Source: a virus
DNA length: 63,019 nucleotides
IMG/VR virus record: IMGVR_UViG_3300037089_000131
Reading direction: 5' to 3' (one strand)
Numbering within the stretch: position 1 is the stretch's first letter; the number at the start of each line of letters is the position of its first letter. Shown piece by piece: positions 31,163 to 33,123 of this stretch. The notes beneath the pieces are model-generated. The model was given only the letters and a program-made list of their open reading frames with translations, had not been told where the DNA came from and did no database searches. A program made the translations under genes and the position numbers.

Positions 31163-31250
31163 GTAGGCGTGTCCGAGCGGCAAAGGAGACCGGCTGTAAC
31201 CCGGTTGCCCCATGTGGGCTACGCAGGTTCGAGTCCTGCCGTCTACACCA
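31163..31250 (+). tRNA. tRNA-Tyr(GTA), class II
   Basis: Acceptor GTAGGCG/CGTCTAC; anticodon stem ACCGG/CCGGT with loop CTGTAAC; long variable arm; GCAGGTTCGAGTCCTGC T-arm; CCA encoded. Confidence 0.7.
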
Positions 31251-31405
31251 AGTTTTAGCAATCCGTGCGGACCCCCTGTTGTGGGCGGAAAAGCACCGTA
31301 GCCTCGGCTACGAGACCCGACGCCCCGAATATCAGGGCCGTCAACCCCGGCGAAAGCTGTGGTTGCCGTGGTGATGAACCGACCGGCTGGCTTTGCTAAG
31401 TTTCT

Positions 31406-31492
31406 GGGGCGTGACTGGCACTGGTGACTAGAGCGGTCTGTAAAACCGTGCTTGCTTGCAGGCAATAGGTTCGACTCCTATACGCCCCACCA
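31406..31492 (+). tRNA. tRNA-Tyr(GTA) second copy, class II
   Basis: Acceptor GGGGCGT/ACGCCCC; D-stem CTGG/CTAG; anticodon loop CTGTAAA; long V-arm GCTTGCTTGCAGGC; T-arm ATAGGTTCGACTCCTAT; CCA. Confidence 0.6.
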
Positions 31493-31498
31493 AGATTC

Positions 31499-31582
31499 GC
31501 CGGGCTGGCGGAATGGCAGACGTGGCGGGCTTAAACCCCGCTGGTGAGAGCCGTGGGGGTTCGACTCCCCCGCCCGGCACCA
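31499..31582 (+). tRNA. tRNA-Leu(TAA), class II
   Basis: Acceptor GCCGGGC/GCCCGGC; anticodon stem GCGGG/CCCGC with loop CTTAAAC; T-arm GGGGGTTCGACTCCCCC; CCA. Confidence 0.7.
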
Positions 31583-31704
31583 GGAACGGTCGAACTCAAT
31601 TCCGTGAAACGGATGCTGGCAGAACCCCCAGTGGTTGGTGAAAAGCTGTGGCAGGCGAATTGACGCCAAGGCGCTTGAAGTAGCCAATCGTTCGACTCAG
31701 ATGT

Positions 31705-31792
31705 GCGGTTGTGGTGGAATGGCAGACACGCAAGGTTGAGGGCCTTGTGGGCAGCAATGCCCGTGGAGGTTCGACTCCTCTCAGCCGCACCA
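31705..31792 (+). tRNA. tRNA-Leu(GAG), class II
   Basis: Acceptor GCGGTTG/CAGCCGC; D GTG-GAATGGCAGA-CAC; anticodon stem CAAGG/CCTTG with loop TTGAGGG; 17-nt V-arm; CCA. Confidence 0.7.
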
Positions 31793-31798
31793 AGTTTT

Positions 31799-31885
31799 GC
31801 GGGGGTGGTGGAATTGGCAGTCTCGCTAGGTCGAGAGCCTAGTGCCCGAAAGGGCGTGAGGGTTCGAGTCCCTCTCCCCGCACCA
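31799..31885 (+). tRNA. tRNA-Leu-like (GAG-type anticodon loop TCGAGAG), degenerate paralog of the previous gene, possibly a pseudogene
   Basis: Acceptor GCGGGGG/TCCCCGC and T-arm are good. D-stem has GTG/CTC mismatches and position 33 is C. V-arm GCCCGAAAGGGC. Confidence 0.45.
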
Positions 31886-31892
31886 AGTTTAC

Positions 31893-31976
31893 GCCGGGGT
31901 GGCGTAATGGCAGCCGCAGCAGACTTAGAATCTGCCGCCTAACAGCGTGAGGGTTCGACTCCCTTCCCCGGTACCA
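31893..31976 (+). tRNA. tRNA-Leu(TAG), class II
   Basis: Acceptor GCCGGGG/CCCCGGT; D GCG/CGC; anticodon stem GCAGA/TCTGC with loop CTTAGAA; CCA. Confidence 0.7.
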
Positions 31977-31982
31977 AGTTCT

Positions 31983-32069
31983 GCGGATGTGCTGTAATCG
32001 GTAGCCAGCCCGGTCTCAGAAGCCGGTGGGGGAAACCCCGTGGAGGTTCGAGTCCTCTCATCCGCACCA
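31983..32069 (+). tRNA. tRNA-Leu(CAG), class II
   Basis: Acceptor GCGGATG/CATCCGC; D CTG/CAG; anticodon stem CCGGT/GCCGG with loop CTCAGAA; V-arm GGGGGAAACCCC; CCA. Confidence 0.7.
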
Positions 32070-32117
32070 AGTTAAATATGGTAGATACAGTATCCTATAA
32101 TAGGAGCGTATCTACCG

Positions 32118-32600
32118 ATGAAATACACCAAGGAGCTTTTAGAGCCAATTGTAAGGGAGAGTAAGAGTTTTGCTGAAGTCCTAAGAAGGCTTGGAGTGAG
32201 ATGGAATGGGGGAACTCAAGCAAACTTGGTACGCCGTATAAAACTCCATGAGCTAGACACATCCCACTTTCTGGGGCAAAAGCGTAACCGAGGGGTTGAG
32301 CACAAAGGCGGGAATCAAAAGCTACACTGGGCAAAAATTCTGGTCATAGACCGTAGGAAAATAAACAGGAAGGAGAGGGTTTTCAGGTTAAGGGAGGCAA
32401 TGATTGAATCAGGAATCCCGTATGTATGCGGAACCTGCGGAGCACCTCCAGAGTGGATGGGGAAACCACTGGTCTTACAGATTGACCACAAGAACGGGAA
32501 TAATCTGGATAATAGACCTAACAATGTGAGGTTTGGCTGCCCTAATTGCCACTCTCAAACTGAAACTTTCGGAGCAAAAAATATCGGTCGAATGGCTTAG
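32118..32600 (+). CDS. HNH homing endonuclease inserted between tRNA genes
   Basis: LQIDHKNGNNLDNRPNNVRFGCPNCHS HNH core with CGTCG...CPNC Zn ligands; starts 49 nt after tRNA-Leu(CAG) and ends 19 nt before tRNA-Leu(CAA). Confidence 0.75.
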   Translation: MKYTKELLEPIVRESKSFAEVLRRLGVRWNGGTQANLVRRIKLHELDTSHFLGQKRNRGVEHKGGNQKLHWAKILVIDRRKINRKERVFRLREAMIESGIPYVCGTCGAPPEWMGKPLVLQIDHKNGNNLDNRPNNVRFGCPNCHSQTETFGAKNIGRMA

Positions 32601-32619
32601 TTTTTGACCTACAAATTTC

Positions 32620-32707
32620 GCCGGGATGGATGGAATCGGCAGACACGCTGCTCTCAAAAAGCAGTGCTCGAAAGAGCGTGGGGGTTCAAATCCCCCTCCC
32701 GGCACCA
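32620..32707 (+). tRNA. tRNA-Leu(CAA), class II
   Basis: Acceptor GCCGGGA/TCCCGGC; anticodon stem CTGCT/AGCAG with loop CTCAAAA; V-arm GCTCGAAAGAGC; T-arm GGGGGTTCAAATCCCCC; CCA. Confidence 0.7.
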
Positions 32708-32747
32708 AATTATCGCACGGTAACATCACGGATGTTATCGTGCAAAT

Positions 32748-32840
32748 GGAAGGTTGGCAGAGTCCGGCTAATCGCACTGGTTTGCTAAACCAGCGTCCCC
32801 GAAAGGGGGCACACAGGTTCAAATCCTGTACCTTCCGCCA
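32748..32840 (+). tRNA. tRNA-Ser(GCT), class II
   Basis: Acceptor GGAAGGT/ACCTTCC; anticodon stem CTGGT/ACCAG with loop TTGCTAA; V-arm CCCCGAAAGGGGG; T-arm ACAGGTTCAAATCCTGT; CCA. Confidence 0.65.
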
Positions 32841-32846
32841 AATTTT

Positions 32847-32932
32847 GGAAGAGGCTGCGACGTGGGTTGCGACTGGCTTTGAACCCCAGAGACGGGTAAC
32901 ACCGTGCGGTTCGACTCCGCCCTCTTCCTCCA
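32847..32932 (+). tRNA. tRNA-Ser(TGA)-like, class II, with imperfect D and anticodon stems
   Basis: Acceptor GGAAGAG/CTCTTCC; anticodon loop TTTGAAC (stem CTGGC/CCCAG with one mismatch); V-arm ACGG..CCGT; T-loop TTCGACT; CCA. Confidence 0.5.
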
Positions 32933-32937
32933 TTTTC

Positions 32938-33027
32938 GGTGAGGTGGCCGAGTCCGGCTTATGGCGCTCGCTTGGAAAGCGAGTATCCCGCAAGGGGTCA
33001 CAGGTTCAAATCCTGTTCTCACCGCCA
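32938..33027 (+). tRNA. tRNA-Ser(GGA), class II
   Basis: Acceptor GGTGAGG/TCTCACC; D GCC/GGC; anticodon stem CTCGC/GCGAG with loop TTGGAAA; T-arm ACAGGTTCAAATCCTGT; CCA. Confidence 0.7.
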
Positions 33028-33033
33028 AGATTC

Positions 33034-33123
33034 GGATAGATGGTCGAGTGGCTTATGACACCGGTCTCGAAAACCGGAGGACCCTAACCGGTCCCGCAGG
33101 TTCAAATCCTGCTCTATCCGCCA
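33034..33123 (+). tRNA. tRNA-Ser(CGA), class II
   Basis: Acceptor GGATAGA/TCTATCC; D GTC/GAC; anticodon stem CCGGT/ACCGG with loop CTCGAAA; T-arm GCAGGTTCAAATCCTGC; CCA. Confidence 0.7.

Follow-up and report, generated by a model that had tools for sequence, protein, structure and literature searches.

Codon-matched leader sequences and intrinsic terminators upstream of the tRNA operons of a large uncultured phage suggest control by transcription attenuation

Leader-peptide attenuators, such as trpL, hisL, leuL, thrL, ilvL, pheL and pheM (the last lying upstream of pheST), comprise a short open reading frame (ORF) rich in regulatory codons. A terminator lies between this leader and the operon, an alternative antiterminator involves the end of the leader, and the stop codon is placed in such a way that a ribosome finishing the leader blocks the antiterminator. 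Here we describe similar arrangements upstream of transfer RNA (tRNA) genes in a 63,019-bp metagenomic contig of a large uncultured phage (IMG/VR record IMGVR_UViG_3300037089_000131), the whole of which is referred to below as the window. The analysis started from an array of tRNA genes for Leu, Ser and Tyr on its plus strand, between positions 31163 and 33123. In the best-supported reading of the sequence, the main result is a codon-matched leader and terminator architecture common to four tRNA operons, which appears to be a variant of the known mechanism.

This architecture differs from attenuators of the trp/his type in several respects. The target genes are tRNAs and not biosynthetic enzymes or synthetases, so that the regulatory loop would sense and restore tRNA supply. 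Each phage leader would sense 3-9 amino acids, often through every synonymous codon, in place of a run of one codon. Finally, the system is phage-encoded and present in four copies with one promoter box, which together partition a complete tRNA set. T-box riboswitches are comparable in that they are cis-acting leaders in which a choice between terminator and antiterminator answers tRNA charging and controls genes of translation supply. They bind uncharged tRNA via a specifier loop and the T-box sequence, without a leader peptide, whereas sensing in the phage would be ribosomal. An Rfam search was without a T-box match, both between positions 31000 and 33300 (E<=10) and across the whole window (gathering score). 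Other known riboswitch and leader families were rejected, the hits to Trp_leader (16.5 bits, E=5.8) and to the permuted transfer-messenger RNA (tmRNA) (E=0.096) being noise.

Tandem tRNA genes on one strand, with short spacers and homing endonucleases, are also found in the tRNA clusters of T4, T5, mycobacteriophages and huge phages and in the 'tRNA array units' of bacteria and plasmids, and the accompanying translation and RNA-repair genes of the window are likewise a feature of tRNA-rich large phages. Such clusters are considered devices of codon compensation or anti-defence (for example PMC12803027). More generally, two explanations of phage tRNAs are current, namely that they compensate for codon usage or that they replace tRNAs which host defences have destroyed, and the control of their expression is essentially uncharted. 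In the clusters of DSS3_MAL1 and CcrBL9 the isotypes of classes I and II are interleaved, unlike the partition by amino acid seen in the lineage of the window, and the small ORFs upstream of these two clusters showed no codon matching and no terminator.

The array contains the following genes, some of which are compared with those of a related contig, L009.

31163-31250, plus strand: tRNA-Tyr GTA, 88 nucleotides (nt), class II (ARAGORN and Rfam); not present in L009
31406-31492, plus strand: second tRNA-Tyr GTA, 87 nt (ARAGORN; kept by Rfam as a match to the selenocysteine tRNA, tRNA-Sec)
31499-31582, plus strand: tRNA-Leu TAA (ARAGORN, Rfam)
31705-31792, plus strand: tRNA-Leu GAG (ARAGORN, Rfam)
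31799-31885, plus strand: tRNA-Leu GAG, second copy, with C33 (ARAGORN, Rfam)
31893-31976, plus strand: tRNA-Leu TAG (ARAGORN, Rfam)
31983-32069, plus strand: tRNA-Leu CAG (ARAGORN, Rfam)
32620-32707, plus strand: tRNA-Leu CAA (ARAGORN, Rfam)
32748-32840, plus strand: tRNA-Ser GCT (ARAGORN, Rfam)
32847-32932, plus strand: Sec-like tRNA with anticodon TGA, discriminator U and encoded CCA (sub-threshold Rfam tRNA-Sec match of 34.4 bits, and fold)
32938-33027, plus strand: tRNA-Ser GGA (ARAGORN, Rfam)
33034-33123, plus strand: tRNA-Ser CGA (ARAGORN, Rfam)

ARAGORN called 11 tRNAs on this strand, all of them Leu, Ser or Tyr and each 84-93 nt long, which corresponds to a long variable arm; the variable-arm hairpin is visible in the folds. 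The Rfam tRNA gathering score (29) was reached by 10 of the 11, with 38-59 bits, and the second Tyr gene matched tRNA-Sec with 47.6 bits, just above the gathering score of that family (47). The original prediction of an array restricted to long-variable-arm Leu, Ser and Tyr tRNAs was thus borne out, with 11 canonical genes, a twelfth Sec-like gene and no class I tRNA among them. The same is true of the encoded CCA, which had been claimed for nearly all genes and was found directly 3' of 12/12. Isoacceptors are neighbours (Tyr-Tyr, Leu x6, Ser x4; anticodons GTA twice, then TAA, GAG twice, TAG, CAG and CAA, then GCT, TGA, GGA and CGA), and the spacers are usually 6-7 nt, as within the Leu block from 31705 to 32069. 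The discriminators read from the sequence are A73 in Leu and Tyr, G73 in the canonical Ser genes and U73 in the Sec-like gene. The second Leu-GAG copy has C33 in place of the near-universal U33, together with A37 and the lowest score (38 bits), and could be either degenerate or an anticodon-loop variant. Judged from its genes, the feature is a genuine 12-gene tRNA operon, predicted to decode every Leu, Ser and Tyr codon.

Between the gene upstream of the array and its first tRNA, the following control elements were predicted.

30870-30900, plus strand: promoter box CTGAAAATTACGACTACCGGGAGTATTATAT, with -35 CTGAAA, a 17-nt spacer and -10 TATTAT
30956-30984, plus strand: G/C-rich hairpin of the 5' untranslated region (GGCCGGGGGG...CCCCCCGG), upstream of the leader Shine-Dalgarno sequence and conserved in L009
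31005-31109, plus strand: leader ORF 1, MKNLSSNSLSSLSYSNSLLSVLVLSDGWSDGWEG, with the Shine-Dalgarno sequence GAGGAAGA and an ATG at 31005
31062-31079, plus strand: antiterminator 5' strand AGCGTCCTCGTGTTGTCC, at the end of leader ORF 1 and identical in L009
31084-31116, plus strand: stop-codon hairpin GGTGGTC...GACCACC, enclosing the leader TAA at 31107-31109 (ViennaRNA)
31124-31139, plus strand: antiterminator 3' strand, overlapping the terminator 5' arm GGCCGC
31134-31162, plus strand: intrinsic terminator GGCCGCTGATGAAGCGGCC + ATTTTTGTTT, a hairpin (31134-31152) and a T-run ending just before the tRNA at 31163

Exactly two copies of the 31-nt box, CTGAAAA-N4-GACTACCGG-NRG-TATTATAT, are present in the 63 kb (0 expected), one at 30870 and one at 61257. 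Both copies are upstream of a tRNA array and both were recovered by a scan for sigma-70-type consensus sequences. The same box heads tRNA operons in the contigs L009, L010, L011 and L012-L016, and a one-base variant heads that of L027. It gave 0 matches in the genome contig collection, hence no prophage or host clue, and a relaxed box pattern and a Leu/Ser/Tyr-leader pattern found nothing further in the viral contig collection.

Leu, Ser and Tyr together account for 19 of the 33 residues of leader 1, compared with a background frequency of 0.18 in the phage (P=7e-7), and in its sensor part, i.e. upstream of the region of RNA structure, this proportion rises to 14/18 (P=8e-8). Its Leu codons are CTA, TTA, CTG, TTG, CTT, CTC and TTG, which represent all six kinds (P=0.008 at phage codon usage), and a cognate codon is present for every anticodon of the array. 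The leader of L009 reads MNRLSNNSLSSYSSSSLLSVLVLSEGWDG, and the substitutions that separate it from leader 1 are mostly synonymous Leu/Ser changes. Insertions and deletions between the two sequences measure 6, 3 and 12 nt inside the leader ORF and 1, 14, 2 and 2 nt outside it. Frame preservation together with synonymous changes constitutes a coding signature for leader 1. The duplex between 31062-31079 and 31124-31139 has a predicted energy of -22.3 kcal/mol, and 987 of 1000 dinucleotide-shuffled versions of the ORF gave a weaker one. The terminator, which was found by a terminator scan, shows one compensatory pair change relative to L009 (GGCGGC/GCCGCC).

An identical array is present on short contigs from several other samples. 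The more distant L009 shares ~54% capsid identity with the window and is syntenic on both sides of the array. Its own array consists, in order, of Tyr x2, Leu AAG, TAG and CAG, an HNH-like ORF, Leu TAA and CAA, Ser GCT, TGA and GGA, and a Sec-like Ser-CGA, so that the Leu/Ser/Tyr grouping is conserved along with its order and its genomic location, Leu GAG of the window corresponding to AAG. Identities are 70-80% between orthologous tRNAs of the two phages, 62-76% between isoacceptors and 52-66% between different isotypes. Since the identity of orthologues and isoacceptors is low and the content is kept, the grouping must be old and maintained, and does not result from recent duplication. Its position is not universal, as two contigs with capsid homologues, L007 and L008, have no tRNAs adjoining the capsid gene. 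L009 also carries, inside its Leu/Ser/Tyr operon, a class-I-shaped tRNA-Tyr GTA with a 5-nt variable loop (2771-2843, 51.5 bits), and at 3045-3123 a short, low-scoring Leu-TAG (30 bits; Sec-like 34.5 bits).

The second copy of the box heads another operon, whose elements are the following.

61257-61287, plus strand: promoter box, second copy, heading operon 2 (box search and sigma-70-type scan)
61382-61477, plus strand: leader ORF 2, MRNRKPNPMQWQHKRNNFRPSYGGPPFAGVA, of uncertain start codon, with in-frame ATGs also at 61325 and 61331
61446-61466, plus strand: antiterminator 5' strand ACGGTGGGCC... of leader 2, which mimics the terminator 3' arm
61508-61542, plus strand: intrinsic terminator GCCCACCG...CGGTGGGT + TTTTTTGTTTT, a hairpin (61508-61532) and a T-run, a few nt before tRNA-His
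61546-63019, plus strand: start of operon 2, with His, Trp, His, Arg CCG, Arg ACG x2, Asn, Lys CTT x2, a 55-aa ORF and an 87-nt Asn-GTT

This second array, as called by ARAGORN, is mostly of class I, and runs off the end of the window. Codons 2-20 of leader 2 all fall (19/19) within the set His, Trp, Arg, Asn, Lys, Phe, Met, Pro and Gln, each of which occurs (P=4e-8 for the sensor part), and the leader contains no Leu. Its antiterminator duplex was equalled in strength by 11 of 1000 shuffles, with 7/8 nt of the terminator arm sequestered. The Pro, Gln, Met and Phe codons predicted tRNAs past the end of the window, and all four were confirmed by the contigs L017-L019, which are 100% identical to the window over an overlap of ~10 kb and complete operon 2. 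Its remainder consists of the 87-nt Asn, Phe x2, Met x3, Pro GGG, CGG, TGG and CGG and Arg TCG, followed by Gln CTG x2, an 88-nt Trp, an HNH gene and Arg CCT, TCT and CCT. The Asn-GTT (L017 10159-10245, corresponding to window 62961-63019, where it is cut) and the Trp-CCA (L017 13539-13626) have a long variable arm and a Ser-like G73, and could be Ser-accepting missense or recoding tRNAs.

Within operon 2, a gap of ~290 nt (61818-62106) ends in a 3' half resembling a T-arm and acceptor, GCAGGGTTCGAGACCTGCCAGCCAAACCA, and could represent an interrupted or unusual tRNA or another RNA. At 62490-62570 lies a candidate tRNA-Lys TTT with a normal anticodon arm (loop CTTTTAA) and an aberrant T-loop, which both ARAGORN and Rfam miss. 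The AAA codon is present in leader 2.

Two further operon types were recovered by searching the box in public collections. The four types together cover all 20 amino acids: Leu/Ser/Tyr; His/Trp/Arg/Asn/Lys/Phe/Met/Pro/Gln; Val/Gly/Ala/Asp/Glu/Cys; and Ile/Thr/Gln. Their common layout comprises the box, a short leader ORF, a stop-codon hairpin, an antiterminator overlapping an intrinsic terminator and, normally within ~10 nt, a tRNA as the first gene. This first gene is a tRNA in three of the types, and in the Ile/Thr/Gln type an ORF precedes the first tRNA. Altogether, this layout was found in 7 distinct units (two in the window, and one each in L009, L010, L011, L014 and L027), which represent at least four phage lineages distinct in sequence. 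As in described attenuators, these units combine a promoter and a short ORF with a ribosome-binding site, an enrichment in cognate codons and a terminator between leader and first gene.

In the Val/Gly/Ala/Asp/Glu/Cys type the anticodon sets are complete, and a tmRNA comes after them, joined in L014 by RNase P RNA; the leaders of this type read MLALHISEADVIAAVAAGCEGD... (L014) and MNMATHITLGDIEAVGIAEAAVVCEGGD... (L011). Those of the Ile/Thr/Gln type, whose array is seen in L027, read MLMNVTMPHTQTQTQIR... (L027) and MMTITMPHTQTTTQIR... (L010). Each of the 7 leaders is enriched solely in the amino acids of its own array, which show the highest enrichment in 7/7, and no leader lacks any member of its own set. 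Besides the values given above for the two window leaders, the sensor-part P was 3e-7 for L009, 2e-6 for L010, 4e-4 for L027 and 2.5e-3 for L011 and L014. In addition to the tRNAs found past the end of the window, a second out-of-sample match was obtained, with tRNAs for Ile, Thr and Gln located downstream of the Thr/Ile/Gln-rich leaders of L010 and L027. A single 104.5-kb contig contains both L011 and L027, and its tetranucleotide composition correlates with that of the window (r=0.97).

Right after its Val/Gly/Ala/Asp/Glu/Cys operon, L014 has a tmRNA at 10025-10377 (108.6 bits, tag ANMQYAFA) and a class A RNase P RNA at 10643-10956 (187 bits), the latter mis-called by ARAGORN as a permuted tmRNA.

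Folding with ViennaRNA predicted a hairpin that spans the leader stop codon and holds the last sense codons in 7/7 distinct leaders. In every unit, base pairing is possible across this hairpin between the 3' part of the leader ORF and the terminator 5' arm. The resulting antiterminator duplex is stronger than ~99% of dinucleotide shuffles in 5 of the 6 units tested, and than 94% in the sixth. When nascent RNA was folded with a stalled ribosome, 4-7 of the 6-8 counted nt of the terminator 5' arm were already paired upstream in 7/7 units; for window leader 1, with the ribosome on the sensor codons, this was the case for 5/6 nt. With the ribosome at the stop codon, the terminator hairpin was the sole remaining structure (six units). 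L011 contains an additional 1:2 hairpin, so that region 2 is freed only when region 1 is covered, which reproduces the 1:2 / 2:3 / 3:4 arrangement of leader-peptide attenuators. Compensatory changes between related leaders are found in the terminators and in the stop-codon hairpins.

Taken together, we consider it likely that each tRNA operon is controlled by the shared sigma-70-like box and a leader-peptide transcription attenuator, the 12-gene Leu/Ser/Tyr array being one of four. From the genes, their shared architecture, the match between leaders and arrays, the alternative pairings and their conservation, we infer that the leaders are translated, that transcription either terminates or reads through, and that scarcity is the inducing signal. 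When charged Leu, Ser and Tyr tRNAs are plentiful, the ribosome would reach the stop codon and melt or occupy the antiterminator loop, so that the terminator would form and the array would be off. Scarcity of any of these tRNAs would make the ribosome stall on the sensor codons, whereupon the antiterminator would form and RNA polymerase would enter the array. Scarcity might come from a host defence targeting tRNAs, from host shut-off or from codon demand, and the array would then represent an on-demand, self-limiting tRNA supply. Somewhat less firmly, we favour a view of the four operons as a modular, self-regulating supply, each being switched on by ribosome stalling on its codon-sampling leader, by which the phage would replace exactly the tRNAs that are depleted. 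In its strongest version, the Leu/Ser/Tyr module would be the phage's answer to class-II-directed defences, such as toxins of the AbiEii or MenT type. With a promoter followed by a terminator followed by genes, conditional read-through would be the only sensible reading; attenuation would also explain why a terminator stands between a dedicated promoter and its array, why leaders mirror their arrays and why the tRNA set is divided into units.

Several points weigh against attenuation. All the evidence is in silico. In equilibrium folds, most of the 2:3 helix is present together with the terminator in window leader 1 and in L009, and the terminator wins outright in L010, so that the switch must be kinetic, as it is in classical attenuators. 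The proposed direction of control would not apply to sensor codons closer than ~15 nt to the antiterminator strand. Foreign codons occur, with three Asn in both Leu/Ser/Tyr leaders and Ile, Thr, His and Leu in the Val/Gly/Ala/Asp/Glu/Cys leaders. Related leaders are not independent of each other, which leaves effectively four leader types, and the window phage's own Val/Gly/Ala/Asp/Glu/Cys and Ile/Thr/Gln operons are deduced from the compositionally similar 104.5-kb contig and do not lie on the window. Leader starts are uncertain, as illustrated by the upstream in-frame ATGs of leader 2, and some Shine-Dalgarno sequences are weak (GAGAGA-type). Finally, attenuation senses charged tRNA, and amino-acid starvation would therefore also induce the array, uselessly.

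Among the other explanations, the one that survives best goes back to the original prediction, in which the Leu/Ser/Tyr grouping was interpreted as sorting by structural class with a class-specific function. The array would then exist to supply class II tRNAs, or to offer them as decoys, against a host factor recognising the long variable arm, either a nucleotidyltransferase of the MenT3/AbiEii type or a class-II-directed nuclease. Toxins with such a preference are documented: MenT3 makes use of the long variable loop of tRNA-Ser, and the abortive-infection toxin AbiEii is reported to have a likely preference for class II tRNAs. Both are host toxins that are not encoded in the window, and they are relevant to this explanation only. 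The phage's heavy investment in tRNA repair, with a polynucleotide kinase-phosphatase, an Rnl1-like ligase, a Thg1-like enzyme and RlaP, suggests tRNA warfare, and the atypical C33 anticodon loop of one Leu-GAG copy would fit as well.

The grouping itself is real, conserved in L009 and non-random. By simple arithmetic, the chance that a three-isotype operon consists of exactly Leu, Ser and Tyr is 1/1140, and the chance that all five GNN amino acids share one six-member operon is ~4e-4. It is the class-specific purpose which found no support, because all 20 isotypes occur in four identically built operons that do not single out class II, and the array is thus not a stand-alone class II device. 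The sorting key looks more like decoding (anticodon) identity than tRNA shape, because the Leu/Ser/Tyr operon of L009 includes the class-I-shaped Tyr-GTA and operon 2 includes the long-arm Asn-GTT and Trp-CCA, whose codons are found in its leader. A shared class-specific processing pathway, proposed as another possible reason for the sorting, did not hold up either: the spacers (CCA followed by AGTTT or AGATT) are identical in the two arrays of the window, with no class-specific signal visible. We therefore regard a function based on structural class as unlikely. It would nevertheless be compatible with an attenuator, since a sensor in common would make sense in the face of a common threat, and by analogy a class-II-directed host toxin is a plausible reason for the common Leu/Ser/Tyr sensor.

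A still less probable explanation is that the leaders are not regulatory at all, that the hairpin and T-run serve to insulate the array or to mark processing, and that the arrays are constitutive devices of codon compensation with leaders of incidental composition. The shortness of the leaders, the weakness of some Shine-Dalgarno sequences, the terminator being thermodynamically favoured in three units and the existence of tRNA arrays without such leaders in other phages are all in line with this. It is opposed by the position of the terminator, which lies downstream of the array's own box in every unit, by a leader-array match that is specific in 7/7 units and was predictive twice, by the frame-preserving indels, by antiterminator pairing in excess of shuffled controls, and by the arrays covering all codons and not just those rare in phage or host. 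About equally improbable is a purely historical origin by in-array tandem duplication with anticodon change, or by joint capture, followed by inheritance of the arrangement: the adjacency of isoacceptors, the anticodon switches between orthologues (a Ser CGA/TGA swap, and GAG for AAG in L009) and the conserved order would agree with it, but isoacceptors and isotypes are no closer to each other than in the comparisons between window and L009, an identity matrix by which recent tandem duplication was rejected, and neither the codon-matched leaders nor the non-random make-up of the other operons, with the five GNN amino acids together, would be explained.

If leader-peptide attenuation is indeed at work here, it would be the first case in which it controls tRNA genes, and would extend textbook trp/his attenuation to a new class of target genes. 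The full-text literature searched contained no report of leader-peptide control of tRNA operons, an absence which is no proof of novelty. The phage would possess a direct sensor-and-response circuit, reading host tRNA availability codon by codon and answering with the matching tRNAs. The class II grouping would be recast as the boundary of a regulon, and the shared Leu/Ser/Tyr sensor would become experimentally addressable. As compact, portable parts of ~250 nt, the leaders could report the availability of specific charged tRNAs.

Besides its tRNA genes, the array contains the following elements.

31251-31405, plus strand: structured element of ~155 nt (gap 1), 77% identical to L009 2491-2644
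31583-31704, plus strand: spacer of 122 nt (gap 2), not conserved in L009
32118-32600, plus strand: HNH homing-endonuclease gene, 160 aa (PHROG 10822, E=1.6e-49)

The splitting of the array by an HNH gene, as originally described, was confirmed by the PHROG match, the Pfam HNH_3 and HNH matches being weak. The ORF belongs to an insert of low GC content that separates Leu-CAG from Leu-CAA (G+C fraction 0.51 vs ~0.58 elsewhere), and a related HNH-like ORF is found at the analogous position in L009. Its HNH motif and free-standing insertion are those of a predicted homing endonuclease. Other free-standing homing-endonuclease genes (GIY-YIG, NUMOD3 and several HNH) were seen at 14074-14775 and 42694-43347 of the window and at 10880-11251 and 13739-14506 of L017; with the gene at 32118-32600, three of them are located inside tRNA operons.

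The two gaps had been described as containing degenerate tRNA remnants. This was not confirmed, as local alignment to all tRNAs of the array remained within the range of shuffled controls. The region 31251-31405 is a conserved structured element shared with L009: the consensus fold includes 3 compensatory pairs, and the identity of 77% compares with a capsid identity of only ~54%. The element is not a tRNA and matched no Rfam family. In L009, its counterpart comes immediately after the attenuator terminator.

The Sec-like gene at 32847-32932 folds as a tRNA with the TGA anticodon that had been assigned to it, but it is non-canonical; ARAGORN did not call it, and its sole Rfam match is the sub-threshold one to tRNA-Sec. 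The fold has an 8-bp acceptor, a 6-bp D-stem, a 4-bp T-stem, a long variable arm and the loop TTTGAAC. In these features it may resemble the allo-tRNAs or tRNA-Sec-like 8/4 tRNAs, with their 8-bp acceptor, 4-bp T-stem and long variable arm. It differs from tRNA-Sec in its anticodon, UGA (Ser) and not UCA, and in scoring below the family threshold. The homologue in L009 (4574-4657) is also tRNA-Sec-like (36.5 bits) and has the anticodon CGA. The canonical Ser pair is swapped reciprocally, Ser-CGA of the window being 80% identical to Ser-TGA of L009. All four Ser anticodons are thereby kept in both phages, and the gene is therefore probably functional.

With regard to the phage itself, a homologue of the major head protein (29811-30845, PHROG 2522) lies directly upstream of the array, and a papain-like protease is encoded in the window. 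No close relative was found in the phage, plasmid-free viral or genome collections. In the INPHARED phage collection there were matches at the level of tRNAs only, and peptide patterns from the capsid protein were without match in the viral contig collection. Genes related to translation and RNA repair are the following.

3855-4385: peptide deformylase
6961-8058: T4-type polynucleotide kinase-phosphatase
9210-10667: Rnl1-like RNA ligase
46212-47084: Thg1-like 3'-5' nucleotidyltransferase
56672-57637: RlaP RNA-repair nucleotidyltransferase

Adjoining the array on the minus strand, at 33461-35932, lies the gene for an 823-residue protein with the shoulder and repeat domains of the major vault protein (PF11978, E=1.5e-23; PF17795), which is missing at the syntenic position of L009. 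In L008, the capsid-related phage without capsid-adjacent tRNAs, positions 510-2015 encode a nucleotidyltransferase of the PolyA_pol family (CCA-adding type).

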